A stretch of 64,000 nucleotides of DNA from Candidatus Nomurabacteria bacterium GW2011_GWD2_36_14. GTDB taxonomy: Bacteria; Patescibacteriota; Minisyncoccia; Phycocordibacterales; UBA9973. The translations under genes were made by a program, and so were the position numbers. The DNA lies in contig LBRL01000001.1 in assembly GCA_000991405.1 (NCBI GenBank), positions 222,172-286,171 on the forward strand, written 5' to 3'. Positions 17,567-64,000 of this stretch are shown one piece after another (position 1 is the stretch's first letter; every line of letters starts with the position of its first letter). Below the pieces are notes generated by a model. The model searched no databases and was not told where the DNA came from. It was given only the letters and a program-made list of their open reading frames with translations.

Positions 17567-17899
17567 CTATTGGGGCTTGTTTGGATTGATCTTATCTATT
17601 GTATACTGGCCATTGTTTATATGTATTCTACTTTCTCCTAAAGTATTTAGGATTAAATTTAGAATTCCAAACACTGCAACCATTATAAACATTCCAAAAA
17701 TTCCCCAGAACATGTGCTTCTTGCTCGTCTTCTTGATCTCCTCATTGTCAGGAGATATCAAATACTGAAAGAGTCCGTACATGAAGTAAATTACAGCTAA
17801 AGCAAATAGGAACATTATAAGCGGACCTATAATAACCCTATTGATGCTATTCATAAGCGTAGTGACACTTGCCTCTGCAATTGGAAAGATTGAAATCAT
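17567..17899 (-). CDS. VirB2/TrbC-like pilin-type small membrane protein, paralog 1
   Basis: Two hydrophobic helices separated by a short charged loop (LISPDNEEIKKTSKK). Paralogous to the four downstream genes. Confidence 0.55.
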   Translation of the reverse strand: MISIFPIAEASVTTLMNSINRVIIGPLIMFLFALAVIYFMYGLFQYLISPDNEEIKKTSKKHMFWGIFGMFIMVAVFGILNLILNTLGESRIHINNGQYTIDKINPNKPQ

Positions 17900-17908
17900 A
17901 ATAATGTA

Positions 17909-18277
17909 TTAACAGTTTCTTCCCATGTTGTTTGCTGTTGTAGGGACACATGGAGCAACTCCAGTCATAGTCTGACTATCAACACCAAATGTTCTCTGTA
18001 CCAAACCTATAATTCCCCAGAAAGCTACGATAACGAAAAGACCGATAAGACCATTGATAATCTTTGCACGGCCATTCTTCTTAGCTTCTTCGTCTGAAGA
18101 ACTTATGAAAGTAATAACTCCCCAGATAAAGTACACAACAGCAAGAGTAACCAATGCTGGTACTATATAGTTCAACCATCCTATAACTTGCATAAGAATA
18201 GTATCAACTGTTGAAACTTGAGCGGAAGCTAATAATGGAGCAAAACCTGCGAAACCTAATGCGATGAATTTTTTCAT
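17909..18277 (-). CDS. VirB2/TrbC-like pilin-type protein, paralog 2 (Sec signal peptide)
   Basis: Signal peptide MKKFIALGFAGFAPLLASAQ followed by a helix - SSSDEEAKKNGRAK loop - helix. Confidence 0.55.
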   Translation of the reverse strand: MKKFIALGFAGFAPLLASAQVSTVDTILMQVIGWLNYIVPALVTLAVVYFIWGVITFISSSDEEAKKNGRAKIINGLIGLFVIVAFWGIIGLVQRTFGVDSQTMTGVAPCVPTTANNMGRNC

Positions 18278-18427
18278 ATGATTTAACGAAATCATGTCGC
18301 GCAACCGTCCTTTTAGCGCGACGCTTATTATTCTAATAATTTTACTAAATCCTACCGACTGTAGGAACTTAAAACGTACTTACAATACTATGTATATTAT
18401 ACCAAATAAGGCACAAAATATACAATA

Positions 18428-18748
18428 TTAATTACCAGGACCTGCCTTAATATCTGAAAAATTAGTCTTACTTCCTGCTGGCAAAAATGTATTTGAGAAA
18501 ATACTAACTAACGGCCAAATACTAACCATGACAAATAATGCTATGATCCCCCAAAGCATGAAGGTCTTCCCTTCCTTCTTCTTCTCTTCATTGTCTGGAT
18601 TCAAAAAGAATTTAAGAATTCCATAAATGAAAGCAACAATCGATAGGGCTATCAGTAAGGGAATAACAAAATCAAGCAAAGTACAAGTAAAAAAGTTTAT
18701 AAGACTTGTTAAACTAGTTATTCCTTGATCACATACAACTTTATCCAT
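18428..18748 (-). CDS. VirB2/TrbC-like pilin-type protein, paralog 3
   Basis: Helix - NPDNEEKKKEGK loop - helix. Confidence 0.55.
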   Translation of the reverse strand: MDKVVCDQGITSLTSLINFFTCTLLDFVIPLLIALSIVAFIYGILKFFLNPDNEEKKKEGKTFMLWGIIALFVMVSIWPLVSIFSNTFLPAGSKTNFSDIKAGPGN

Positions 18749-18757
18749 ATTTATATA

Positions 18758-19192
18758 TTATGTTGTGCTTTTAATATCTTCGACCGTTTTACCAATGGCA
18801 TTTGCTATGACAAACGCCCCCAATAATAATGCTCCACCAATCACTGTATACAACAAAGTTTTATGAGCAACTGTCAGTTCTTCAGAGTTACCTTGGGCTT
18901 TGACGTATAGGAATCCTGCATAAATGATAGCCAAGACAAGAAGTGGCACACCGACTATAAGGACAAGGTTTATAAACCATTCTATGAATTGGGGGAGATT
19001 ATCGATGCCTTGGATGGGGTTAGTAATACCGTCAATCTGCACTCCACAAGGCTTCTGATCCTTTCCTCCACAGTTTGGATCTGCGCTAACAAACATGAAC
19101 GGCATCACTAAAGCAAAGGCAATAATAAATACAAAACTATACTTTGATATTACTGAAATGATGCTATACTTTTTTCCTATTATTTTTTTCAT
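18758..19192 (-). CDS. VirB2/TrbC-like pilin-type protein, paralog 4 (signal peptide, Cys pair)
   Basis: Signal peptide, CGGKDQKPC, then a helix - AQGNSEELT loop - helix. Confidence 0.55.
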   Translation of the reverse strand: MKKIIGKKYSIISVISKYSFVFIIAFALVMPFMFVSADPNCGGKDQKPCGVQIDGITNPIQGIDNLPQFIEWFINLVLIVGVPLLVLAIIYAGFLYVKAQGNSEELTVAHKTLLYTVIGGALLLGAFVIANAIGKTVEDIKSTT

Positions 19193-37802: not shown

Positions 37803-37869
37803 TTTTAATAAAATGTTTTAGGCTTAAATTAAAAAATTCTCTATTAAGAGAAAAGATATAGATGACTAG

Positions 37870-37992
37870 TCTTATCTTTCCACCGCGCCTTGCCGTAGCT
37901 TTATGCGTAGGCAGGTTTGTTGGCTGGATTTAGCACCTTGCTTTAGTAGGTTGCTGATGGGTCATTGAGCCAGTTGCTCTCGCCATACTCCT
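37870..37992 (-). promoter_or_regulatory. SAM-I (S-box) riboswitch in the metK leader
   Basis: Reverse complement reads UUAUCAGGAG..GGCGAGAGCAACUGGCUCAAUGACCCAUCAGCAACC...AAGGUGCUAAAUCCAGCC...GGAAAGAUAAGA. P1 pairs UUAUC/GAUAAG. Downstream there is a UUCUCU-UAAU-AGAGAA-U6 terminator-like hairpin. Confidence 0.8.
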
Positions 37993-38108
37993 GATAATTA
38001 ACTATTTAGTTGTAGATAGATTATAGCATAATATTAAAAATTATCTATTTCAGGGTCATTTTACTTTTCTCCCCTTTTTTGTTAATATACGGAAGTGAGT
38101 TTAAACAT

Positions 38109-38183
38109 TCCGTGGTAGCTCAGCGGTAGAGCGATCGCCTGTTAAGCGATTGGTCGTAGGTTCGATCCCTACCCACGGAGCCA
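38109..38183 (+). tRNA. tRNA-Asn (anticodon GUU), CCA encoded
   Basis: Acceptor TCCGTGG/CCACGGA, D-arm GCTCAGCGGTAGAGC, anticodon loop CTGTTAA, T-arm GTAGGTTCGATCCCTAC. Confidence 0.9.
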
Positions 38184-39737
38184 GACAGGACAAAGGGACT
38201 CAAAAGAGTCCTTTTGTCGTTTATTAGTAACTGTTTTATTTAGTTCGAAAATCTTTTGAGCATCTATTTTTTCTTGAACTCTCTTAGATAGGACCTCAAC
38301 AGGTTTCTTTAGTAACGGTATGACTTTTTCGTCTTTTAACATCAAGTTCGAAAAAATATGAGATAAAAGTAATCTTCGTTCTTCAGGACTTCTTTTTTCA
38401 TATATTTCTCTTGCTCTAAAAGCAAGATCTAATATATTTAACCAAATTTCAAAATATTTTGTTTCTACATTTTTTATTCTTGATATTTGTTCTTGTATCT
38501 CTGATTGTTCTTGATTTATTTCTTTTTGTTTTTTCTCCCAACCTTCAGTACTAATTTTTTGATCAAGTCTATCATTGTAGAGTATATCTAGTCGACTCTG
38601 TAGTTGAATATAACGAGCATTAAGAGTGTTTAGAGTGTTCTCTTTGTATTCTATCTCTTGAGCATGATTTGTTTTAATTTTGGCTTTTATAGCCTCAGCT
38701 TCTTTTTCTGTAATATTCTCAAAAAACTTGAAAACTCCGAAAAGCTGTTCCTCAATTTTCTTCTCTGGAGTATATGGTTTTTGAGTGCAGTCTTTATAAT
38801 GGTTACAATGATAATACACAATTCCTTTCTTTATCTCCGCTGTAATAGTACAGTTACATTCTCCACATTTCATCATCTTTCTAAATTGGAAACTATGTTT
38901 GCTGTAGGTAGGAGCTAGATGACCCCTTCTCACACTCTGGGCTTTATCAAATAGTTCTTTTGTGATTATAGGCTCATGCTTTCCTCCTGAGTGAAGTATA
39001 CTATTCCATCTCATAGCTCCGTAATAGAATGGTTCATTTAGAAGGTCTTCTATTCTATTTTTGGCTGGTTTATTACCTGCACGAGTTCTAAATCCTTCAG
39101 TATAAAGTTTTTGCCTCAATGCTTCCATCGAATAGTTACCACTGGCATACATTTCGAAAGCCTTTTTAATAAATGGAGCTACTTCTTCATCAATTACATG
39201 AATTTTGTGCCCTTTATCTCCAATTGTTTTGTACCCAATAGGAGGCTTAGTTGGAAGCCACCCCTGAGCTAATTTTTCCACTTGACCTTTCTTAACTTCC
39301 TCAGAAAGATTAGATATAAACTTTTTAGCTAACACAATTTCAATATCCCAACGAAACTTTTCATCAGATTTGGCATTCTTATGAAGAATAAGATTTTGTT
39401 TTACGAAGTGTATCTTTCTTTCTAAATCTTCATCTATCCAGTCATTAGCAAATACAGCTTCTTTTAAGTTACGAGTTAAACGATCCACCTTTTCAACTAT
39501 TAGATTCTTAATGTCATTTTTCTCTATAAATGACATCATTTCTGCGAATACTTTTCTCTGTTTTGCTCCACTAGCACTCTCGGCCACAGCAAATACTTTT
39601 ACATTTGTAATTCCTTTTCTATTGGCATATTCAGAGAGTAATTTCTCCTGTGAAGGAAGAGAATAACCTGTTTCTTCTTGTTCTTTTGAAGAAACTCGGC
39701 AATATAGCACAGAATTATTTATATTAGAGGTTTTCAT
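38169..39737 (-). CDS. Large serine recombinase (integrase); the last 5 codons overlap the tRNA-Asn 3' end
   Basis: N-terminal catalytic YCRVSSKEQ; C-terminal Cys-rich zinc-ribbon and coiled-coil typical of large serine recombinases. Confidence 0.8.
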   Translation of the reverse strand: MKTSNINNSVLYCRVSSKEQEETGYSLPSQEKLLSEYANRKGITNVKVFAVAESASGAKQRKVFAEMMSFIEKNDIKNLIVEKVDRLTRNLKEAVFANDWIDEDLERKIHFVKQNLILHKNAKSDEKFRWDIEIVLAKKFISNLSEEVKKGQVEKLAQGWLPTKPPIGYKTIGDKGHKIHVIDEEVAPFIKKAFEMYASGNYSMEALRQKLYTEGFRTRAGNKPAKNRIEDLLNEPFYYGAMRWNSILHSGGKHEPIITKELFDKAQSVRRGHLAPTYSKHSFQFRKMMKCGECNCTITAEIKKGIVYYHCNHYKDCTQKPYTPEKKIEEQLFGVFKFFENITEKEAEAIKAKIKTNHAQEIEYKENTLNTLNARYIQLQSRLDILYNDRLDQKISTEGWEKKQKEINQEQSEIQEQISRIKNVETKYFEIWLNILDLAFRAREIYEKRSPEERRLLLSHIFSNLMLKDEKVIPLLKKPVEVLSKRVQEKIDAQKIFELNKTVTNKRQKDSFESLCPVWLRG

Positions 39738-39825
39738 AATTGTATTTTAACTTATTTTTATAATTTATTATAATCTTTTTATTTAGTCTTATTAGTATGA
39801 CCTTAAGTCATGTATAAATTTACTG

Positions 39826-40188
39826 TTAGTCATATGGACCCTGTGACTTTAAGTCACTTGGTTTAGTAGCCCAATCCTTTGAATGCGTAAGATAGTACTG
39901 ATTACTGACCCATTGTCCTCTACTTTTTGTTTTGGTTATTTTTATAAATCCATATTTTTCTAAGATAGGGAGATGTCTAATAACTGTTCTTGGGTTTATG
40001 TGCAATTCTTCTGATATTAGTACCTCTGATGGGAATGCAATTCTAGTCTTGCTGTTTGAGTGTCTTTTTAGGCAAAGATAGATAGAAGTCCCTATGGGTC
40101 CTATAAGTTTTGCATATTGGTCTATAAATACATTACCCATCTTAAACCAACCTCCATTTTTTGTTTTTATATATTTCAGCTCATTCAT
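39826..40188 (-). CDS. Winged-HTH protein resembling the RepA_N / replisome-organizer N-terminal domain
   Basis: FIDQYAKLIGPIGTSIYLCLKRHSN...ISEELHINPRTVIRHLPILEKYGFIKI. Confidence 0.5.
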   Translation of the reverse strand: MNELKYIKTKNGGWFKMGNVFIDQYAKLIGPIGTSIYLCLKRHSNSKTRIAFPSEVLISEELHINPRTVIRHLPILEKYGFIKITKTKSRGQWVSNQYYLTHSKDWATKPSDLKSQGPYD

Positions 40189-40195
40189 AAATTTA

Positions 40196-40468
40196 TTAAA
40201 TATTAGAATCTAGAGTTGATTCCCTAGGAGCTGACACTAGGGAATCAACTTTAAGTTCCAATTTTTCTTTTTGTTTATCTTCATAATCAAACTTTGCAAG
40301 CAAGTCAAAAAAAGATGAAAGTTCATTCAACTCTTGAATATTTAATTCTTCTTCTGTTGAGCTATCTAATCTCATTGTTAAAATACTGACGACATATTTT
40401 TTCAATCGTCTTAGATAAGGTAAAATTCTTTTTCTGAGATAACTCAGAAAGTTTCTCGTGTAGATCAA
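40196..40468 (-). CDS. Hypothetical protein (90 aa)
   Basis: ORF only. Confidence 0.35.
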   Translation of the reverse strand: MIYTRNFLSYLRKRILPYLRRLKKYVVSILTMRLDSSTEEELNIQELNELSSFFDLLAKFDYEDKQKEKLELKVDSLVSAPRESTLDSNI

Positions 40469-40647
40469 CCACTATACGAATTTGCTTCGTAATTCTTCTT
40501 CTTTTTGCGTGACAAATTATCTTTACCATTTAATAATTATCTCATCACTTATTACTGGTGGTAACTTTCTTTTACCTTCACTCTATATTCACGCAATGTA
40601 AAAAAATAACCCTATTTAATAAGGTTATTTTTACTTGTGGATAAGTA

Positions 40648-41313
40648 CTACTTAATAATTGAGATGGAAAAAATGTATTTATTAAAACAATAGCCAGAAC
40701 CAGCAGGAATAATTAAATTATTTTCTTGCTCAAATTTATCTTCAAAAGATTTGTTTATATTTTTAATAGCAGTAGAAACACTTCGTTCTTCTGAATATCC
40801 AGCTTCTTCTGTTAGTTTAGACATCGTTTTTGGTGATCCTTTTGACAACAATTTTAATATTTCTAGTTTTTTATCACTAACTTTTATTGAATTTTTTGAG
40901 TCTTCCTTAAGAAAAATCAGACCTCGTAAGTCTATACAAACTTTTTGTTTATTATCTTTTTTTGTATACTTTTGTAAAGTAATTGGATTATCTTCTATTT
41001 GATTTTTAAGTAATTCAATTTTTTCTTTTGCTATGCTGGGGGCAATTCTTCTAATTAGTAAATCATCACCTATATTCTCTTCAGAAAAATATTGCTGTTT
41101 ATCTATTAGGATCAGTTTTTCAAGTACTTTCGATAAATTATTTAAGTCTTGCATAGTAACACCATAAGCATTCAATGAATAAAGGGGTATTCTAGTATTA
41201 GAAGAAAAACCAGGAAAACCTTTTTGGTAATTTTCAATAAGGTTTACAACTTGTAACATTTTATCACAGTCTTCTTTTGTTAGTTTAGGTGTATTGATAA
41301 TATATTCTTCCAT
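40648..41313 (-). CDS. DNA-binding protein with C-terminal OmpR/PhoB-type winged helix, no receiver domain
   Basis: VSDKKLEILKLLSKGSPKTMSKLTEEAGYSEERSVSTAIKNINKSF. Confidence 0.45.
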   Translation of the reverse strand: MEEYIINTPKLTKEDCDKMLQVVNLIENYQKGFPGFSSNTRIPLYSLNAYGVTMQDLNNLSKVLEKLILIDKQQYFSEENIGDDLLIRRIAPSIAKEKIELLKNQIEDNPITLQKYTKKDNKQKVCIDLRGLIFLKEDSKNSIKVSDKKLEILKLLSKGSPKTMSKLTEEAGYSEERSVSTAIKNINKSFEDKFEQENNLIIPAGSGYCFNKYIFSISIIK

Positions 41314-41861
41314 ATTAAAGATAATCTCATTTTTTTAGGTTTTTGTCGACAATTTTTTATTTAATTGAGTCAAAGAAATGCGACCTTTTGCGACCCATTA
41401 TATTTATCGATATTTTATAAGACTCTTTAATCTAATAATTTCTTATTGGAATTAAATATACTTCCACAAAATATCTTGTAAATAAATGACATTCTGATCA
41501 TACCCATACTAAAATACCGAGTTTTGCCTAGTCCTAAAATGCCACCTTTTGCCACCCACTCTTCCCGCCTTTTCCCACCCCTTTTCACCTCTAATACATC
41601 AGACTTTTTCAGACTTTTTATAAAAGAATCTATTTATTGTATTTGTCGACAAAAAGAGCTATTATAAAAATACAACGCCTAAACCAGAAATGGCATGGCT
41701 ACATAGGAAACCCACGCAAATAGTAATGGCCTCACAGTCATCACCATTTGCGTGGGTCCATATTCGAAAGAGTATGGGGTGTTCTCGAAAGAGGATATCA
41801 GATGGTCTGTGGGGCCTTTACTGTCTTCATAACCATATTATAAATTAAAAACCCACGCAAA
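41314..41861. promoter_or_regulatory. AT-rich noncoding region with palindromes and direct repeats (candidate operator/iteron-origin region of the element)
   Basis: TTGTCGACAA palindrome twice (about 41341 and 41643). AAACCCACGCAAA twice, forming a 12-bp inverted repeat at 41710-41762. A CCACC(T)TTT pyrimidine-repeat tract. Confidence 0.5.
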
Positions 41862-42848
41862 ATGAAAAAAATACAAATAATTTGTTTAATTGTTTTTTGT
41901 TTTCTTTCTTTTAGTATCGCCCGTGCAGAAACTTTGATTATAAAATCAGTGGATAAAAGAATAGAAGATATTGAAAAATCTCGAGAGAAACTTCAAAAAG
42001 ATATTGAAAATAATTATAAACAAGTTCAAGCTGAATTAAAAAGTTTAAGTGCAAGAATAGACACTAATATAAAAAGTGAATTTTATTGTGTATTACCAAC
42101 TCAAACTTGCACGGAATCTATCTATCAAGGTATTAGAGGAACTGCCATATCGAGTGGTCTTATTCCAGATGCTGGTCAACTTGCTCAATGCAGAGCTAAG
42201 ATTGATGAATATAATACAAAATTACAGGAATATAATAAATGTTTTCAAGATTGGCAAAATAAAAAGATTGGAGATTCGGCTCAAAAAGAATACGATTATC
42301 AATTGCAAGTATATGAATTAAAATCACAATTAGCCTGTATGGATAAAGAAGGACACTATTCGTCTTTCAATAAAATAACTAAACAATGTGAGTGTGTAGA
42401 AGGTTCAACATTCGTCAACGGAAAATGCATAAATCGTATAGATAATCTACTTATGTGCGTAAAAACTTTTGGTCCATTATCTCATTATGATTACGACAAA
42501 GCTGGTTGTGTATGTGATGAGGGTAGTAAATTAGATCTCGAAAAAGATCTATGTGTTGCTGAAACAGAAAAAGTAGTACCTCCCCCAGTAAAAGAAAAAT
42601 CTCCCTATAAGAATAAATTTCAGGAAATTTTACAACAAAAGGAAACTGAACAACCCTTAAAACCCTCTCAAGGGCTTAAAGAAAGTCCCAAGAGCATAAT
42701 TACTGTTGTAGAGGAGAAAGTACCTTCACAGGCTGAAATTACCCCAAATACTTCGCATGATATACAACCTCCAGCTATTACAGGTCCATCAAATGTAACA
42801 TTCTGGCAAAAAATTAAAAAAAACTTCTTGAAAATTAAGTTTTGGTAA
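41862..42848 (+). CDS. Secreted Cys-rich protein with N-terminal coiled-coil (signal peptide)
   Basis: Signal peptide MKKIQIICLIVFCFLSFSIARA and multiple C..C pairs. Confidence 0.5.
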   Translation: MKKIQIICLIVFCFLSFSIARAETLIIKSVDKRIEDIEKSREKLQKDIENNYKQVQAELKSLSARIDTNIKSEFYCVLPTQTCTESIYQGIRGTAISSGLIPDAGQLAQCRAKIDEYNTKLQEYNKCFQDWQNKKIGDSAQKEYDYQLQVYELKSQLACMDKEGHYSSFNKITKQCECVEGSTFVNGKCINRIDNLLMCVKTFGPLSHYDYDKAGCVCDEGSKLDLEKDLCVAETEKVVPPPVKEKSPYKNKFQEILQQKETEQPLKPSQGLKESPKSIITVVEEKVPSQAEITPNTSHDIQPPAITGPSNVTFWQKIKKNFLKIKFW

Positions 42849-42858
42849 AAATACTTTT

Positions 42859-43122
42859 ATGAAAATTAACCTATTATTTTGGATATTTATACTAATAGCT
42901 TTCATTGGAACATTTTTATATTATCTAGGAGAAACAAGGAAGAATAATATCGGTGAGGTCATTAAGTTTTCTGGAGGAATTATTACATTTGGTATTCTAA
43001 TATCCTCATTCTTTTTATTAGAATGGAAGGCGTCATTCTTGCTTATTATTGGCGAATTCACAATAATCAGTTTTTTATCAACTTTACTTGTTGAATCTAT
43101 GACAAAGAGACGTATAAATTAA
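42859..43122 (+). CDS. Small membrane protein (3 TM)
   Basis: ORF with hydrophobic helices. Confidence 0.4.
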   Translation: MKINLLFWIFILIAFIGTFLYYLGETRKNNIGEVIKFSGGIITFGILISSFFLLEWKASFLLIIGEFTIISFLSTLLVESMTKRRIN

Positions 43123-43127
43123 ATATT

Positions 43128-43541
43128 ATGGAAAAATTAAAGGGGCTGATAATTAGTGTATTACAAGAAGAACAAACTAATCATATGAATAAACAAAAAA
43201 GAATCAAGGAGTTGGTATTGGCTATCGTTTTAACAATTTTACCAATTTTTATATTTATAATAATGCCTGCATTAGAAGATAAATACTTTGACTTGTTTTC
43301 TGGGCGTTTGATGTACCTAAGTCAAGATTATTATTTTTCTTTTTCCCCACTTTTTATCTTTGATTTGCCTTACTTTTTTACCCCAATAATATCAGCTTTG
43401 GCAGTATGGTTTTGTCTTAAAATTAGAAAAAGTATAGAAAATAGAAGTTCATTTTTTAACTACCTTAATCTCGTCTTAATTGTTTTGAATAGTGTTTTTT
43501 CCTTATATTCCTTATGGTTTTTATTGTTATTTTATAAATAA
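43128..43541 (+). CDS. Membrane protein (4 TM)
   Basis: ORF with hydrophobic helices. Confidence 0.4.
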   Translation: MEKLKGLIISVLQEEQTNHMNKQKRIKELVLAIVLTILPIFIFIIMPALEDKYFDLFSGRLMYLSQDYYFSFSPLFIFDLPYFFTPIISALAVWFCLKIRKSIENRSSFFNYLNLVLIVLNSVFSLYSLWFLLLFYK

Positions 43542-43597
43542 AAATCTAAAATCGTAGTATTATTTGATAATTTATTATTTTCGTATACAATATACAT

Positions 43598-44572
43598 ATG
43601 GCAAAAGAAGAAAAGCAGATTATCGAGAATAATTCAAAAAATGGTGTAAATGAAAAGATACCAAATAATGAAGATTCTGCTCAAAATAAGAAAGTCGAAG
43701 AAGAAATATCTCCTCTTAAAAAATTATTAAAGAAGAGTGATGTTTTGCTTATGTTATACCCAAAAGACATAAATGGAAATTTTTCAGCCAGCATTGATCC
43801 TGAAGATGAAATTTCTATTTATAAACTTTTGAAGGAAAAGAAGGAGAAGAAAAAAGAACTTTTAATTTTATTAGATACAAGTGGTGGTAATGTATATTCG
43901 GCGGTTAAAATAATGGATACATTAAGAACCCAATATAATCAAATAAATATTGCAATACCGCAGGAAGCTAAAAGTTCTGGAACTATGATGTGTTGTGGTG
44001 CTAATAATTTAATAATGAGTTCTATCTCTGAACTTGGACCATTAGATAAGCCAATGATTCATCCTAATGATGAGACAGCAAGAATCTCTGCTTTAGATAT
44101 TATTAAATCTATCGATGGCATGTTGGATACTGCACAACAAAGAGAAAAAGATTTTGCCAAAGAGGTAAATAATGATTTTGGAATACCTATTAAACAAAGT
44201 TTGCAATTAGCAAGTGAATCAATCTCTAAACTAATATCACCTATGTTGTGTAGAGAAGATGTAAAAATCTATAATCAAGCCCAAAGATTACTTGTTATAG
44301 CCCAGAAATACGCCACTGAACTATTAGACGCACATATGTTAAAATATATTGATCGTAAAAAACTTAAAGAGAGAATTATTGATATGACTACTAGGCAGTT
44401 GATATGGGCATATCCTGACCATAGTTTTGCTATTAGACGAGATGAATTGAGAGAATGGTTTTTTATTGTAAAAAATTCTGAAGATGTTGATTATTGGGAC
44501 GAACTTTGGGATAAATTTTATCAAAATATAGGTTATAAAAATAGTAAATTGATTAAATTTTTAGATAATTAA
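43598..44572 (+). CDS. ClpP/crotonase-fold serine peptidase, SDH (serine dehydrogenase proteinase)/S49-like
   Basis: ILLDTSGGNVYSAVKIMDTLR...IPQEAKSSGTMMCCGANNLIMSSISELGPLDKP matches the lhTpGG...A.SaGT.ia.aAdei.M....lGpiDP pattern. Confidence 0.55.
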   Translation: MAKEEKQIIENNSKNGVNEKIPNNEDSAQNKKVEEEISPLKKLLKKSDVLLMLYPKDINGNFSASIDPEDEISIYKLLKEKKEKKKELLILLDTSGGNVYSAVKIMDTLRTQYNQINIAIPQEAKSSGTMMCCGANNLIMSSISELGPLDKPMIHPNDETARISALDIIKSIDGMLDTAQQREKDFAKEVNNDFGIPIKQSLQLASESISKLISPMLCREDVKIYNQAQRLLVIAQKYATELLDAHMLKYIDRKKLKERIIDMTTRQLIWAYPDHSFAIRRDELREWFFIVKNSEDVDYWDELWDKFYQNIGYKNSKLIKFLDN

Positions 44573-44583
44573 GATATAATTTT

Positions 44584-44790
44584 ATGAACATTGCAATATT
44601 AACAAAATTTAATATGGATGAAAAAGATACACTACCCTTAGATAGCGGTAATAACGATGAATTTCCTATGAGTGTTAGCGAAAAATTAGTAAGAAATGAA
44701 GTGAGAAAATTGACTGAAAATTCTAAAGAAATAAAAAAACTAAAGGAACAAATTGAGAAAAAGAATAACAAAAATAAGAGTGATTTATAA
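44584..44790 (+). CDS. Small hypothetical protein
   Basis: ORF only. Confidence 0.3.
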   Translation: MNIAILTKFNMDEKDTLPLDSGNNDEFPMSVSEKLVRNEVRKLTENSKEIKKLKEQIEKKNNKNKSDL

Positions 44791-44847
44791 TATTCTAATT
44801 TAATAGGTCGATAAGTTTAATATATTTAAGTAATTTTAATAAAAAAT

Positions 44848-45045
44848 ATGTCAGGTAAAAATAGGATAATTATAAAAAAATCAACAAATAAACAAAAATA
44901 TGTTGTATTAAAATCAGCTAATAATAAGACTATAGCAAATACGGAAACATATAAAAGTAATCAGAGTGTAGATAAAGCAGTTAAAGCTCTAAAAAAGATT
45001 GTTAAAAATGCTATCATTGTAGATCAGACTAAAAAAGAGAAGTAG
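44848..45045 (+). CDS. YegP/DUF1508-family protein
   Basis: IIIKKSTNKQKYVVLKSANNKTIANTETYKSNQSVDKAVKALKK. Confidence 0.6.
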   Translation: MSGKNRIIIKKSTNKQKYVVLKSANNKTIANTETYKSNQSVDKAVKALKKIVKNAIIVDQTKKEK

Positions 45046-45149
45046 AATTATTAAACTAATAGTGATCTTATTTCAGCTAATGCGATATTTGGGAAAGGAT
45101 ATTCTTTGGCCCAATCAATAGTTATAAAATCGTCCGTTAGGGCGAGCCA

Positions 45150-45554
45150 ATGAAAGAGGCAGTTATAAGTTTGATAAGTGTCATAGTGGGAGCCATTATA
45201 GGTCTAATGGGTACTTTTTTATCTTCATACTTTCAGAATAAGATTTGGAAGAAAGAAAAACAGATTGAACATTTAAAAGCTAAAAAAGAAAATCTAGAAA
45301 ATAAATACGAGAAATATATCAAAGAGTTATATCTTTCTATGGAAAAGAATGGCAATTTTGATGCTGAACTGTTTCTAGAGGGTCTATACTCTTTCCCGAA
45401 AAATGTCAAAGACTCAATTTATAAACTAACTAAATTAAAAACAGGTAAAGAAAATCTGGAGGAACTTAAGCAAGCTAATTGGTGTATAATCGAAGAAATG
45501 AAAAAATCATTAGTTGAAATTGATATCGAAATAAAAAAGAAAATTGATGATTAA
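45150..45554 (+). CDS. Membrane-anchored coiled-coil protein
   Basis: N-terminal TM helix followed by a coiled-coil. Confidence 0.4.
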   Translation: MKEAVISLISVIVGAIIGLMGTFLSSYFQNKIWKKEKQIEHLKAKKENLENKYEKYIKELYLSMEKNGNFDAELFLEGLYSFPKNVKDSIYKLTKLKTGKENLEELKQANWCIIEEMKKSLVEIDIEIKKKIDD

Positions 45555-45677
45555 CTTGTGCAAATCATAATCCGAGAATCTTCGCATGTTAGGAGTAGCA
45601 AGGATGGTCCTTGCTACTCTGTTACTATTCTTCTTTATACCTAAATGATTTTTTATATTATGTTATAATATACTCAT

Positions 45678-45875
45678 ATGAAATATTTTAAAAAAGCACT
45701 GTTTATTTGTTTTATAGTCTCACTTATTTTCTCTTTGTTTTGGACAATCGGAAAGTTTTTTAATTCTGATATGCCTATGCTTGATAGACAAACTTATTCT
45801 ATAATGTCTGGATTAAAATACCTTACAGCCATTGCTTTATATATAGCTTGGAGAGTTACACCAGACCATAAGTAA
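45678..45875 (+). CDS. Small 2-TM membrane protein
   Basis: ORF with hydrophobic helices. Confidence 0.35.
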   Translation: MKYFKKALFICFIVSLIFSLFWTIGKFFNSDMPMLDRQTYSIMSGLKYLTAIALYIAWRVTPDHK

Positions 45876-45980
45876 GTATTAGTTAGTTGTTGTGAATTAT
45901 CAAGGATGGTCTTTGATAGTTTCAGCAAGCAAATGAATTTTAAAAAATAAAACTCGACAAAGTCTGAAACAATGCCGAGT

Positions 45981-46367
45981 TTATTTTGCAAAAATTTTTT
46001 TTGTAATTAGATAACTCACGATCGACAATATGACAGTGATAAATATTTGTGCAATTAAATATTTTAAGTTTATATATTCAACTAGTAAATATAAAAATAT
46101 ACTATTTGCACAAAGCAGTACTCCTGACATAATAAAATACCGGAGAATCTGTTTGGGAATTTCTTTTTTGTCTTTATTATCAAAAGTCCAATACTTCTGA
46201 AACAAAAAACTGGATGTATAAGATAAGATAGAACCAATTGCCGCAGATATCGGATACCAAATTTCAACGAACTCAGTTAAACAATAAAGCGTTAGATAAT
46301 ATAATCCTACACATATAATTCCACTTATACCAAATTTTGCAATCTTTGGGATTTTTTTAGTTTTCAA
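45981..46367 (-). CDS. GtrA-family membrane protein
   Basis: 4 TM helices. FQKYWTF resembles the GtrA FxxNRxWTF motif. Confidence 0.55.
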   Translation of the reverse strand: MKTKKIPKIAKFGISGIICVGLYYLTLYCLTEFVEIWYPISAAIGSILSYTSSFLFQKYWTFDNKDKKEIPKQILRYFIMSGVLLCANSIFLYLLVEYINLKYLIAQIFITVILSIVSYLITKKIFAK

Positions 46368-46525
46368 TATAGCCTCCTTTTTTCTTCATACTAATTGATA
46401 ATTCCCCAAAAAGCAATTTTTAATCGCGTTTCTCTTTTAAAAAGTTCCAACTTCATTCTAAATTTGAAACCTCAATTTTAACCCTATAATTCAAAACCCC
46501 TACCCTTTTATCAAATTCTAACCTA

Positions 46526-46936
46526 TTGACTTTACAAGTTGAAAAATGTAATGTGAAAGAAAAATTGTCTAACTCTAAAATAAAATATGTTATGAAAAGT
46601 ATTCTTGTAATTACCATTCTAGACAGAAATGAAGATCTAATTGAGCAATTCATGGCCGTAGGCATAGAAACACACATCTCAGTATTTTTCTATAGACCGG
46701 AGAATGAAAGAAATCTATTAGATCGTATTAAAAAAAGTCGTCCAGCTATGATAATAATGGACGGCAGGATACATCCATTAACACTGGAAAATATCTACGA
46801 CAGTATTTTCAATACTCTTGGTGTATATGACATGGATTCTAATATCTATGCCATTAAAAAAGAAGTTCATCTACCAGGAGTAATTAATACAAAAATAGAA
46901 AATTTTGTAAAAATATGGGAAGAGTCGCGAAAGTGA
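46526..46936 (+). CDS. Hypothetical protein
   Basis: ORF, followed by a hairpin that shares GAGTAGCAAGGA with the hairpin at 45590. Confidence 0.35.
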   Translation: MTLQVEKCNVKEKLSNSKIKYVMKSILVITILDRNEDLIEQFMAVGIETHISVFFYRPENERNLLDRIKKSRPAMIIMDGRIHPLTLENIYDSIFNTLGVYDMDSNIYAIKKEVHLPGVINTKIENFVKIWEESRK

Positions 46937-47087
46937 CTCTTTTTGTTTTTATCTTACCTAAAGAGTAGCAAGGACGATTCTCGTTACTCTTTCTTTCCAC
47001 CCTAGTATCTATATTTTTCAAAAGGTATACACTTAAGACAAATCTACACAAATTCTAAATTTAATTTAACCTACTAAATTTATTATT

Positions 47088-47321
47088 ATGAAAAATGTAA
47101 CAATTTGTCTCTCTTGTGCAGATGTGTGCAAGAATGGAGTTTTTGTTAAAAGCGAAAAAGAAATAGCTAAATTATGGTTGCTGACATTTCGTAAACCTAA
47201 AGCAGATATAGATATAGTTATCTATGTTTGCCCAGAATGTTACAGATCCTTTCCAAGGGAATATTTGGAAGCGATAAAAATGAAATATTATGAGAAACAG
47301 CTAGAACAAACTTCAGGATGA
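47088..47321 (+). CDS. Small zinc-ribbon protein
   Basis: CLSC...CPEC Cys pairs. Confidence 0.4.
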   Translation: MKNVTICLSCADVCKNGVFVKSEKEIAKLWLLTFRKPKADIDIVIYVCPECYRSFPREYLEAIKMKYYEKQLEQTSG

Positions 47322-47801
47322 AGTTTGTTCTTTCATTTAATTTAACCAATTTACTTGGGTAAATTTAAAGGGCAACTTTTGTTGCCCTAGGGGTTTATAC
47401 TTTTTTTAATAATTTTAATGAAATTTTTTCAATTAATTCAATTCTTGGACTAGGATCAAGTTGTGAGACATTAAAGCCTTCGGGTAAATCACCAGAATAA
47501 ATTTCCTGATAAAATTTAAGAATTTTTTGAGAAACAATAGGATACATTCTAATAATTTCATCGGAGAATTTTTCAATTCCTAAATTGGTGACAATAGGTT
47601 TTCTGTCATTTTCTGTATAAGCAAAATATGTCTTTTCCCCATTTAAACCCTTACTAAAAATAATGATTCCTTCACTAGTTTCAGTTGTTCCTATAAATTT
47701 AGTTTTTTAAAAAGTGAATATTTGGTTTAATTATAATCTTTTATTTTATAACTAGCAATACAAGAGTTTACGACTCCTCTTTTGATTGCTATACTAATAC
47801 T

Positions 47802-48011
47802 ATGCAAAAAACAGCTACAAAAATCTTCATTTATTCATCAATCGTTTTCGGAATTATCGGAATACTGGTTGTTGTGACTGGTTCTGGACCAGATGCTCCA
47901 GATTCAAATATTAGTAAAATATTGATTAGACTTCTATTTGCAACGGTATTTGTCATCTTGCCTTCATTCGCATTAAGTATTGCTAGCAAATACTTGAACG
48001 ATAAATCTTAA
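47802..48011 (+). CDS. Small 2-TM membrane protein
   Basis: ORF only. Confidence 0.35.
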   Translation: MQKTATKIFIYSSIVFGIIGILVVVTGSGPDAPDSNISKILIRLLFATVFVILPSFALSIASKYLNDKS

Positions 48012-60509: not shown

Positions 60510-60533
60510 ATATTTTGTATTTTAGCACAAAAA

Positions 60534-60560
60534 GAAAATCCCCGATAGAGAGGGGATTTT
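60534..60560 (-). terminator. Hairpin between the small K-rich ORF and secA
   Basis: aaaatccccgatagagaggggatttt. Confidence 0.5.
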
Positions 60561-60583
60561 CTTAAAACCAATTGGGGGTAGAA

Positions 60584-60679
60584 TTACTTCTTTCCCTTCT
60601 TTGCTTTTTTAGCTACTTTTTTAACTGCCTTTTTAGCTACTTTTTTAACTGCTTTCTTAGCCTTCTTTTTTGCTGCCAT
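60584..60679 (-). CDS. Lys/Ala-rich 31-aa peptide with an internal 24-bp tandem duplication
   Basis: Manual translation MAAKKKAKKAVKKVAKKAVKKVAKKAKKGKK. Confidence 0.4.
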   Translation of the reverse strand: MAAKKKAKKAVKKVAKKAVKKVAKKAKKGKK

Positions 60680-60829
60680 ATATTTAAAAAATTTATTATT
60701 TTTAAAAGATGTGTGACTTCACGACCTTACAAAATTTTATAAAATAATTTTTGTAAAAAAAATTAATCACACTCACACATATATTATCTAACATAAAAGA
60801 AATAACCGCAATACTTTTTCGATAAAATG

Positions 60830-60838
60830 TGTGGATAA
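60830..60838 (-). promoter_or_regulatory. Consensus DnaA box (TTATCCACA) within an extremely AT-rich ~200-bp tract
   Basis: tgtggataa on the plus strand. Confidence 0.35.
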
Positions 60839-60932
60839 CTTTTTTTCTTTTTTTAAAAAAATTTATTTTTAAATTTAATTAATTAAAAAAATATAATAAA
60901 AAATTAATTAGCCCGTATAGATTTTTTATAAT

Positions 60933-61004: not shown

Positions 61005-61098
61005 ATTTCGAGAGAAGCTATTAAAAAAATCTAGAACTCTAATATATAGATAGATATGAAAAACACCATGCTTTGGACAAGGTGTTTTTCATATATTT

Positions 61099-61412
61099 GG
61101 TTTGTATCTATAAGCCGGGTTCTGTTCCCTATTGCTAGAGTAATAGATATTTATCTAGGATGTAAATTACTCCACACCTCAAGCGATTCAAATTCTGGCA
61201 TAAAGCCAGAAAGTACGATCTTGCACACGCGTAAGTATTTTGCCGTTTCACCCGAACACTAATTTTCATTAATGTTCGATTCGTCTCTGTTCGCAACTCT
61301 ACCCTTACGGGCGACGGGCGTTACCCGCTACGTTTAATCAAGCAAAAGCTTGAATATGTGCCCGGACTTTCCTCACCCTAATAAATTAAGGCGCATCTAT
61401 CCAATACAAACC
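61099..61412 (-). ncRNA. rnpB: RNase P RNA (compact, about 314 nt)
   Basis: P4 strands GAGGAAAGUCCGGGCAC (reverse complement of 61358-61378) and ACAGAACCCGGCUUA (reverse complement of 61111-61125). P1 pairs GGUUUGUAU/AUACAAACC. A TTGTCA-17-TACAAT promoter lies upstream on the minus strand. Confidence 0.8.
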
Positions 61413-61477
61413 TGATTATATTGTATCAGATGTTATAGGGCTTGACAATACCAATTTATTTTGCTATACTGTCCTTA

Positions 61478-61572
61478 GTGAGATTAAGTTCCAACGTTCA
61501 GTACAAATTTATTTTACTGTAACAATTGCATAGCAAAACCCCATCGAGCAATCGGTGGGGTTTTGTATTTTG
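61478..61572 (+). ncRNA. Candidate small RNA, divergent from rnpB
   Basis: Near-consensus promoter TTGACA-17bp-TATACT (61442-61470). A strong terminator ACCCCAUCGAGCAAUCGGUGGGGU plus a U-run follows (61535-61572). No ORF. Confidence 0.35.
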
Positions 61573-61679
61573 TACCAAAATGTTATGATATAGAGGTGGC
61601 AGTCGTTGTGTGTTTAAGTCAGCGGCTGCACTCACATATGCAATTGTGTTGGAGGTTAGCACCCGCTGACTTTAGCACA

Positions 61680-61727: not shown

Positions 61728-62975
61728 TTACTTCTTCGTAGATTTCTTTTCAGTAATTTCTGGCTTTGGATCTATGCTTAAGTCACTTTCAGGTTTTGAA
61801 TTTCCAAAAAGTGCCGACATTAATTCTTTTCCTTCAATGCTTCCTTCCGGAACTTCTACAACAGCAGGCTGGTCTAAACTAGAGTAGAGCATTGTCATTG
61901 ATATCTTGAGAGCTTCAATATCTTTACTTTCTTTATCTACGATATCTCCACTCACTACTAGCTTGTGAGGAATATGGTCGAATATTCCAATCCAGATTTC
62001 TCCGTGAAAATTATTTAAAGATTCTATAATTTTGGCATAGTCGGAATCTGTTACCAAGGATAATTCTTTGCCATTTTCTGTATTCCTTAGATAGATAAGC
62101 ACCTCTTTCAAGTATGAAGCCACTCCTTCTTTGTCTAAGTCAAAGTTAAAATGATAAGACAAAGATCCATCCACTATTGCTGGTAAATGTTTTTTTGTCA
62201 TCTTGATAAGGCTAGCTCTACTCGTAATATCGTAGATCTTTTGCTTCTGTTCTGGGGTTAAATTATTCACTATTTTTGAGCCAAATCCAGAGGAAGATAT
62301 TAGTGGATTGTTGCTTATGTCACCTAGGCTAGACTTTCGAGGGAAAACGATCCACTGATTCTCAAGTGGCTTTAATGAGATACTTCCTAGATTGGGAGCT
62401 TTGAGTAACTTCACGTAGAGTGAGCCATTAACAATGCGAGAATCCATGGAAGCTTCCTCGCCATCCAATTTCAAAACGAAAGAAGTATCTGACTTTAAAT
62501 TATTCTTATCTATAAGATCAAATGAACCTTTCATGGCCAAATCAATAACTTTAAACCCTTGGTCTGTATTAGTCTCCACTCCTACATGTGATGATTCAGC
62601 AACAATATGCATATCAATAGTAGAAGCTTTAGAATTCCTTGAGGTGTCTAATGATTCTCCAAGTAATTTCGAAGGGAATATAAAATAGCCAGATCCATAC
62701 GCAAGAGCTACGCCACTTATGATAAATATTAAGATAATGATTGGCAATAGAAGGCTAGAAACCTTCTTCTTGGACTGAAGAAATATAACCTTGGGTGTTT
62801 TGTTTATTACTGGTGCAACTGTAGCTACATTTGGCTTGTTCTCAATAATATTGAAAACATCTATTATATCTCCCGCACTCCAACCTTCTGCTTCTAGCTT
62901 AGTAGCAATAGTCTTCCTATCTAGCCCAGAGGCAAGCTCATTTTTCACAAATTGTATAAGTTCTGGTGTTGTCAT
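61728..62975 (-). CDS. Hypothetical single-pass membrane protein with large extracytoplasmic domain (415 aa)
   Basis: ORF with a TM helix at about aa 75-95. Confidence 0.45.
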   Translation of the reverse strand: MTTPELIQFVKNELASGLDRKTIATKLEAEGWSAGDIIDVFNIIENKPNVATVAPVINKTPKVIFLQSKKKVSSLLLPIIILIFIISGVALAYGSGYFIFPSKLLGESLDTSRNSKASTIDMHIVAESSHVGVETNTDQGFKVIDLAMKGSFDLIDKNNLKSDTSFVLKLDGEEASMDSRIVNGSLYVKLLKAPNLGSISLKPLENQWIVFPRKSSLGDISNNPLISSSGFGSKIVNNLTPEQKQKIYDITSRASLIKMTKKHLPAIVDGSLSYHFNFDLDKEGVASYLKEVLIYLRNTENGKELSLVTDSDYAKIIESLNNFHGEIWIGIFDHIPHKLVVSGDIVDKESKDIEALKISMTMLYSSLDQPAVVEVPEGSIEGKELMSALFGNSKPESDLSIDPKPEITEKKSTKK

Positions 62976-63299: not shown

Positions 63300-64000
63300 C
63301 ACTTCATAAATGAAGGTAAGAGATCGATTTCAAATTGAATTATTCCACGAACAGCTTCCGCTACCCGTGCCTTGTTACGACTTATTCCCTGTCACCGAGC
63401 TTACTGTAGGCCCTCCTTCTGGAGAGATTTCGAGTATTCCCGGCTCCCTTGAATTGACGGGCGGTGAGTACAAGACTTGAGAACGTATTCACCGCGGTAT
63501 GTCTGACCCGCGATTACTAGTAATTCCAACTTCATGGGGTCGAGTTGCAGCCCCCAATCCGAACTGGCGCAATTTTTATAGGATTCGCTCAGGGTTACCC
63601 CGTCGCTGCCCGTTGTAATTGCGATTGTATTATGTGTGTAGCCCAAGGTATCAAGGGACATGCTGACCTGGCGTCATCCTCCCCTTCCTCCCCGACCGAA
63701 ACGTACAAATAGTTATAAAGTTTTATAAAGTGTAAAGTTATAAAGTGAATGCAAAATGCATTTTACTTTATGAACTTTATGAACTTTTAACTTTCAACTT
63801 TTATCCGCTTGGGTCGGGGCAGTCTCGTGTGACACTTATAACACACGACGAGGGTTGCGTTCGTTACCCCACTTAAGGGAACAATTCAAACCACGAACTG
63901 ACGACGGCCATGCATCACCTGTCAACTAGTCTTGCGAGGGCCCTGGTTTCTCAGGGCTTTCACGTTGATTTCTAACCTTGGTAAGGTTCTTCGTTTATCG
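63300..64000 (-). rRNA. rrs: 16S rRNA gene, 3' two-fifths (continues past window end); 3' end approximate
   Basis: Reverse complement contains AAGUCGUAACAAGG, UGUACACACCGCCCGUCA and GGAGGAAGG...GAUGACGUCA (universal 1390-1500 and 1175-1200 regions). An AT-rich insertion of about 110 nt lies at 63715-63830. Confidence 0.9.

Follow-up and report, generated by a model that had tools for sequence, protein, structure and literature searches.

A reduced type A RNase P RNA in Candidatus Nomurabacteria with an additional hairpin between P5 and P7

The locus described here lies near the end of a 64,000-nucleotide (64-kb) stretch of Candidatus Nomurabacteria DNA, the whole of which we call the window. 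After the 16S rRNA gene come a protein gene, rnpB and secA, and not a 23S gene. The features at and around rnpB are collected in Table 1. An RNase P RNA on the minus strand had been predicted from the two strands of the P4 helix, and these are present as GAGGAAAGTCCGGGC (61374..61360) and ACAGAACCCGGCTTA (61125..61111). The ends of the RNA pair, again as predicted, to form a P1 of 9 bp between GGUUUGUAU (61412..61404) and AUACAAACC (61107..61099). The covariance-model search that the original prediction had proposed was run with Rfam 15 on the whole window. It returned a match to RF00010 on the minus strand at 61095–61412 (138.5 bits, E 1.9e-42), which covers model positions 1–367 and passes the curated gathering score of 100 bits. 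The match runs 4 nt past P1 at the 3′ end, to 61095. Within the clan, the best match of the RNA is to type A, not type B. The same scan gave a single RNase P match, and thus no second RNase P RNA is found in the 64-kb window. The minimum free energy of the rnpB sequence has a z-score of -5.2 against shuffles; this value and the E-value of the match together exclude chance as the source of the RNase P RNA assignment. By sequence comparison, the segment 61099–61412 is confirmed as a bona fide, complete, reduced bacterial type A RNase P RNA.

Table 1. Coordinates of features at the rnpB locus, numbered from the first nucleotide of the window.
Feature	Position	Strand	Basis
415-aa protein between 16S and rnpB, no Pfam match	61728-62975	-	only window, L127, L128, L187, partly L130
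Predicted promoter: TTGTCA, 17-nt spacer, TG-extended TACAAT; ends 7 nt before first RNA nt	61420..61448	-	sequence and conservation
rnpB, P1 5′ strand to P1 3′ strand, 314 nt	61099..61412	-	RF00010 and covariation
P4 5′ strand with J3/4, GAGGAAAGUCCGGGC	61360..61374	-	P4 99.4% paired; covariation
Extra hairpin UCAAGC-UUUU-GCUUGA, RNA nt 60-75, between P5 and P7 5′ strands	61338..61353	-	15-nt insertion relative to RF00010
P12, 11 bp, GAAA loop, RNA nt 135-160	61253..61278	-	cmscan and helix assignment
Junction GGUGAAACG, P13/P14 deletion site, P12 straight into P11 3′ strand	61244..61252	-	5 nt for 42 model positions
P15 (4 bp, bulged A), internal loop without GGU, single 7-bp hairpin for P16/P17/P6	61185..61220	-	hairpin 92% paired
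P18, 8 bp, GUAA tetraloop	61159..61178	-	95.6% paired; 7/8 pairs compensatory
P19-like hairpin CUCUA-GCAA-UAGGG between P2 and P4 3′ strands	61127..61140	-	5/5 pairs compensatory, 90% paired
P4 3′ strand, ACAGAACCCGGCUUA	61111..61125	-	paired with 5′ strand; covariation
Predicted intrinsic terminator hairpin AUGAAAAACACCUUG-UCCAAAG-CAUGGUGUUUUUCAU, just past RNA 3′ end	61056..61092	-	98-100% identity
Spurious 68-aa ORF, ATG start, antisense to rnpB	61056..61262	+	frames in relatives, annotation survey

The length of the RNA, which had been noted as shorter than typical, is below the published mean of 374 nt for type A RNase P RNAs (PMC7191817). Short length alone is common, not rare. A P4–P4 pattern scan, with each species represented by one genome, gave at least 120 species with P4-to-P4 spans of 212–242 nt, compared with 234 nt in the window RNA; these matches are unrelated compact type A RNAs, not relatives, and serve as a size baseline only. 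The locus itself recurs in identical form in assemblies from several samples and sources, including a scaffold of 800,830 bp. SecA is encoded 0.6 kb downstream of rnpB, and an identical protein is found on contigs of several Rifle groundwater assemblies, including GCA_003457295.1; NCBI lists the source of this protein as Candidatus Nomurabacteria. A SecA-based scan of metagenome contigs identified 80 related loci with SecA identities of 41–90%, and an nhmmer search placed rnpB at the equivalent site upstream of secA in about 45 of them. Among these are 25 distinct full-length RNAs of 301–482 nt. All 12 relatives that were scanned match RF00010 above threshold, with 102–143 bits. Individual relatives are designated below by locus number (for example, L127).

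The RNA is bracketed by a predicted promoter and a predicted terminator, which points to an independently expressed gene. Across all 25 relatives, the most distant included, the promoter sequence TTGTCAAG, containing the -35 element, does not vary and the -10 element is conserved. The terminator hairpin is 98–100% identical in most relatives and carries compensatory changes in L142, L144 and L136. Transcription of the minus strand would begin from this sigma-70-type promoter at or next to the first nucleotide of P1, and would stop at the terminator about 7 nt past P1.

On the opposite strand, the 68-aa ORF overlaps both the terminator and the 3′ part of rnpB. It begins with an ATG and is called in one public annotation, raising the question whether it is a genuine protein gene overlapping rnpB. 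This ATG is complementary to the 3′ arm of the terminator, so that the start lies inside the palindrome and is a by-product of it. In 22 relatives, the frame read from the same ATG is 8–68 aa long, and in nine of these it shrinks to 8–18 aa. Residue conservation within the frame mirrors that of the RNA. No Pfam match was found for the 68-aa product, and five of six public gene calls omit it. The position of the start and the shrinking of the frame indicate that the ORF is spurious, as had been supposed, and we consider a real gene here extremely improbable. We have high confidence in the overall explanation that the locus is the single-copy rnpB of a Candidatus Nomurabacteria member of the CPR, a reduced type A RNA with its own promoter and terminator, and that the plus-strand ORF is not a gene.

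We placed the helices by combining the cmscan alignment with our own assignment. The RNA contains P1 (9 bp), P2 (7 bp), P3 (7 bp), the P4 pseudoknot with its bulged U, P5, P7–P12, P15 and P18, and P9 is capped by a GUAA loop. In an alignment of 20 sequences, 88.8% of cells across the whole structure are paired, compared with 33–42% when the partners are slid by one to three columns. Both sides have changed in a compensatory manner at 57 of the 95 pairs. In P4, which is 99.4% paired in this alignment, GG/CC is replaced by AA/UU at two pairs in 8–9 relatives. The MAFFT alignment is out of register at P12 (46% paired) and at the hairpin between P5 and P7 (58% paired). The core junctions J5/15 (GCAAG) and J18/2 (CCUAGAUAAAU) are kept. 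So is the module of the specificity domain that recognizes the T loop, consisting of P7–P12 and J11/12 with ACAGAGACGAAU and GGUGAAACGG. L18 and L9 are GNRA loops in every aligned member of the Nomurabacteria rnpB family.

Two changes account for the short RNA: the clean deletion of P13 and P14, and the reduction of P6/P16/P17 to one hairpin on P15. The original prediction had described a reduced CPR-type RNA lacking peripheral helices, and had asked which of P13, P14 and P18 are missing. The host is indeed a CPR bacterium and peripheral helices are absent: P13 and P14 are gone, but P18 is retained. At the deletion site, GGUGAAACGG links P12 to the 3′ strand of P11. In the relatives L146, L134 and L142, P13 and P14 occupy this site and have canonical loops. 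Beyond P15 there is one hairpin only, in place of P16/P17 and the P6 pseudoknot. All seven pairs of this hairpin show compensatory changes in the 20-sequence alignment, in which it is 92% paired. No hairpins are seen in the helix assignment between P15 and P18 (P15.1, P15.2) or between P10 and P11 (P10.1).

The internal loop L15 is altered as well. GGU does not occur in L15 within RNA nt 193–228, where the two sides of the loop read GUACU and UUUGA. In type A and type B RNAs, the GGU of L15 pairs with the tRNA 3′ RCCA (PMC4919922). Lacking this motif, the enzyme is unlikely to pair with the 3′ CCA of tRNA. Of four tRNA genes in the window, CCA is encoded in two and missing from the other two, so CCA-less tRNA genes do not simply explain the loss.

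Between the 5′ strands of P5 and P7, the RNA carries a hairpin that is additional to the Rfam model. It folds in 24 of 25 relatives, in which the stem sequences are quite different. We aligned 37 distinct sequences to a small, purpose-built covariance model of the P5/P7 region. In this alignment, which leans towards the hairpin structure because it was fitted to the covariance model, 88.9% of cells are paired compared with 42–53% in slid controls. Compensatory changes occur at seven of seven pairs, with four to six pair types at each position. The loop is not conserved, being UUUU, AUU, GUAA, GAUAA or others. An explicit hairpin scan found the insertion in none of 115 further compact type A RNAs, which come from many phyla. 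The distances agree: P8 starts 25–32 nt after GGGC in the Nomurabacteria rnpB family, versus approximately 15–16 nt in the 115 compact RNAs.

The location of this hairpin corresponds to the P5.1 site of type B RNAs, an equivalence of position only. P6 is regarded as the hallmark of type A and the L5.1–L15.1 contact as that of type B (PMC5066622). In the window RNA P17 is missing. A P6-like pairing between the tail of the P5/P7 hairpin in J5/7 and the 3′ side of L15 shows no covariation across the aligned relatives; L136 and other single sequences do have complementarity between J5/7 and L15, but in differing registers. The strong covariation in 37 distinct sequences and the restriction of the hairpin relative to the 115 RNAs would fit a distinct subtype, in which a type A core and specificity domain are combined with a P5.1-like hairpin, without P15.1, that replaces P6/P16/P17. 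Against this, the type A model matches the RNA end to end and above threshold, P10.1, P15.1 and P15.2 are missing, and the variable loop gives no evident sign of a loop–loop contact of the type B kind. Extra helices limited to one lineage are also common among RNase P RNAs. We therefore hold the idea of a distinct subtype tentatively, as a possibility rather than an expectation. As P15.1, P15.2 and P10.1 are absent and the P5/P7 loop is not conserved, we make no claim to an L5.1–L15.1 contact.

Comparison with known RNase P RNAs places the window RNA closest to type A. With the RF00010 family, including E. coli M1 RNA and the Thermotoga maritima P RNA, it shares P1–P5, the P4 pseudoknot, P7–P12, P15, P18, the conserved junction sequences, the GNRA loops L9 and L18, and a full-length covariance-model match. 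It differs in the absence of P13/P14, the single hairpin in place of P6/P16/P17, the L15 without GGU, the extra P5/P7 hairpin, the P19-like hairpin, and its length. The class B RNA of Bacillus subtilis similarly has a hairpin at the P5.1 position and lacks P6/P16/P17 and P13/P14. There too, P12 presumably leads directly into the 3′ strand of P11, by way of a GUG(G/A)AAC-like junction, as in the window RNA. In contrast to class B, the window RNA is without P10.1, P15.1 and P15.2, and the defining L5.1–L15.1 contact therefore cannot form. Type C RNAs, found in Chloroflexi, have P6, P16 and P17 together with P10.1 and P15.2 (PMC7191817), none of which is present in the window RNA.

Reduced RNAs of this general kind are already documented in the CPR, and in this sense the window RNA is ordinary. 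Lui, Nielsen and Arkin (2021, PMC8172020) described CPR RNase P RNAs that often lack P13, P14, P16 and P17, a state they termed ‘not unusual’, and the CCA-binding motif is missing in 23 of their 35 RNAs. Like these RNAs, the window RNA is derived from type A, lacks P13/P14/P16/P17 and the CCA motif, and comes from a genome with unlinked rRNA genes. Unlike them, it scores above the Rfam threshold and has retained P12, P15 and P18, so it is milder than the extreme cases without P12 or P15 in that study (PMC8172020). A hairpin between P5 and P7 is not mentioned there (PMC8172020). Two further short type A RNAs, like the window RNA from uncultivated lineages, show other combinations of losses. L013 (‘Candidatus Nomurabacteria’, 304 nt) keeps P13/P14, has lost nearly all of the P15–P17 arm and has no P5/P7 hairpin. 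L070, from Margulisbacteria, lacks P13/P14 and has the junction GGUUGAAACGG, keeps P16/P17 and GGU, and also has no P5/P7 hairpin.

The conserved core and T-loop module that are kept suggest that the RNA cleaves the 5′ leaders of pre-tRNA together with RnpA. By analogy with the family, the core (P4, J3/4, J5/15 GCAAG, J18/2 and J2/4) would bind the acceptor stem and position the scissile bond, the specificity module (J11/12 ACAGAGACGAAU and GGUGAAACGG) would read the T stem-loop, and RnpA, encoded elsewhere in the genome, would bind the 5′ leader. In type A RNAs, the fold is braced by the contacts L13–P12 and L14–P8 (PMC8457005). With P13/P14 gone, both braces are presumably lost. The contacts L18–P8, L9–P1 and L8–P4 could still form, L18 and L9 being GNRA loops throughout the family, and the fold would rest on them. 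We speculate that the P5/P7 hairpin may stiffen the junction normally closed by P6. Activity of the RNA alone may be weak, as the type A hallmarks P6/P16/P17 and P13/P14 are both missing.

These losses could also be read as decay. In that case rnpB would be a relic and tRNA 5′ processing would be carried out by a protein-only HARP-type enzyme, as in Aquificaceae. The loss of peripheral helices and of the CCA-binding motif would be in line with this. So would the result that rnpA was not found in the 64-kb window by phmmer with three approximate RnpA queries, a weak test, or by Pfam scans of 20 small ORFs, none of which matched PF00825. A search for rpmH in the 64-kb window was also negative. 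However, the universally conserved core sequences are all intact, and across relatives compensatory substitutions preserve the helices and both promoter and terminator stay conserved. Together, these features indicate purifying selection on a functional RNA, and we judge the relic explanation very improbable. A working, reduced RNase P RNA is the explanation that we prefer.

Most relatives have P13/P14, with loops of the canonical GUAAG.G and GGUAAC-like forms. They are absent from the window RNA and from L127, L151, L152, L136, L138, L139 and L154. The distribution does not follow the protein trees. Neighbor joining of SecA gives {window, L127, L130, L134, L187} and {L136, L137, L168}, each with 100% bootstrap support, and the absence of P13/P14 needs at least three changes on the secA trees in 100 of 100 bootstrap replicates. 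On the dnaE tree, the window groups with L130 and L187 with 96% support. These two loci, with which both secA and dnaE place the window, have P13/P14 and a different sequence type of the specificity domain. The 415-aa gene is confined to the few loci listed for it in Table 1, and other relatives have a different segment of 700–850 nt in its place.

The RNA tells a different story. On a tree of the RNA core, all RNAs without P13/P14 fall together, along with L146. The window RNA is closest to L151, L146 and L138, and the conflict with secA and dnaE sits mainly in the specificity domain: over 87 columns of this domain, it has 4–7 mismatches to L151/L146/L138 versus 21–25 to L187/L130/L134. The relatives without P13/P14 all have one junction, G(G/A)U-GAAACGG, and one sequence type of the specificity domain. 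It is the disagreement of rnpB similarity with secA (100%), dnaE (96%) and the presence of the 415-aa gene that suggests transfer. The sequences are consistent with either of two histories: rnpB or its specificity domain passed between related species, or one set of mostly paired substitutions arose more than once.

A related possibility is that the form without P13/P14 arose several times by independent deletion across Nomurabacteria lineages. The RNAs concerned do occupy at least three separate places in the secA tree in all 100 bootstraps, and P13/P14 have been lost with a similar junction in the unrelated Margulisbacteria RNA L070. On the other hand, the P13/P14-less relatives have a common junction and specificity-domain type and cluster on the RNA-core tree, features that fit a single origin followed by exchange of rnpB between lineages. 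We consider repeated deletion rather unlikely, while giving it some weight. Near-identical flanks could have aided the exchange of rnpB. Chimeric metagenome assembly at conserved flanks is a caveat for the relatives but does not apply to the window locus, since that is found in many assemblies. Combining these points with the structural comparison, one might propose an undescribed Nomurabacteria subtype, with a hairpin at the P5.1 position in place of P6/P16/P17, whose P13/P14-deleted rnpB or specificity domain has moved between species by recombination across the promoter and terminator flanks. This combined proposal is doubtful enough that we put it forward only as a conjecture.

The result is of use chiefly for annotation, as it locates rnpB with its promoter and terminator in a CPR genome and discards a false protein call. 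It further provides a clean comparative example of the natural trimming of a type A RNA, in which P13/P14, P6/P16/P17 and GGU are gone and purifying selection persists. Minimal ribozymes could be designed with the help of the 37 related sequences, among which some have and others lack P13/P14 and which share a covarying P5/P7 helix; the same set allows rnpB exchange between related bacteria to be tested. Current understanding is not overturned, and the general interest is low.

Within the family, several RNAs are enlarged instead of reduced, and RNase P RNAs of up to 482 nt occur alongside forms of 301 nt. L130 (719–1200), L137, L187 and L134 have insertions of 100–170 nt in the P15 hairpin, and L177 has an insertion of the same size range in the P5/P7 hairpin. 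GC-rich hairpins of the form CUCCGAC...GUCGGAG are found in differing helices (P3, P19, the P5/P7 hairpin and, as insertions, P8) in L152 (136–562), L146, L151 and L161. In L152, P13/P14 are missing at the usual site and two hairpins of this type are inserted after GAAACGG. These elements might be small mobile hairpins or convergent stabilizing ones.

The DNA flanking rnpB is itself conserved. Upstream, the block 61417–61575 is 80–90% identical in more than 20 relatives, compared with 70–77% for secA DNA. The -35 sequence of rnpB, TTGTCAAG, also serves as a plus-strand -35 element, giving a putative near-consensus promoter at 61442–61470 with TTGACA, a 17-nt spacer and TGcTATACT. About 60 nt downstream of it, at 61533–61566 on the plus strand, is a covarying hairpin with a U-run. 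The promoter and hairpin could define a divergently transcribed small RNA of approximately 100 nt; no Rfam family matches this candidate. On the other side, between rnpB and secA, a 31-aa lysine-rich ORF (MAAKKKAKKAVKKVAKKAVKKVAKKAKKGKK) with its own terminator lies at 60584–60679 on the minus strand. The surrounding block, 60519–60899, is 78–91% identical across relatives, and the ORF is called in several public annotations. Rfam matches in the conserved flanking blocks are all sub-threshold and at chance level. We also considered a replication origin in the AT-rich rnpB–secA spacer and rejected it. The spacer has one perfect DnaA box (TTATCCACA, 60830), such boxes are not clustered anywhere in the window, and the minimum of the cumulative GC skew is at approximately 41–42 kb, inside a probable integrated element.

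The 16S rRNA gene (63333–64000, minus strand) carries a 119-nt insertion. Its 3′ end reads GGAAUAAUUCAAUU instead of GGAUCACCUCCUUU, as does that of the relative L164, and accordingly has no CCUCC anti-Shine-Dalgarno sequence. No CACCUCC-like sequence occurs near the 16S 3′ end, and no obvious Shine-Dalgarno sequence is seen at the starts of secA, the 415-aa gene or the 31-aa ORF.

Elsewhere in the window, a tRNA-Asn gene (38109–38183) abuts a gene for a 522-aa large serine recombinase (38169–39737, minus strand). From approximately 40 to 48 kb, the GC content is 0.28–0.31, with a change in the sign of the GC skew at about 41–42 kb and a LOOT RNA at 41676–41799. The composition and gene content of 38109–48000 suggest an integrated mobile element or prophage. 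A SAM riboswitch (RF00162, 48.9 bits) at 37869–38000 on the minus strand adjoins the junction between tRNA-Asn and the recombinase. At 17567–19192, also on the minus strand, four consecutive small ORFs of 106–144 aa match PF18895, a type IV secretion system pilin family.
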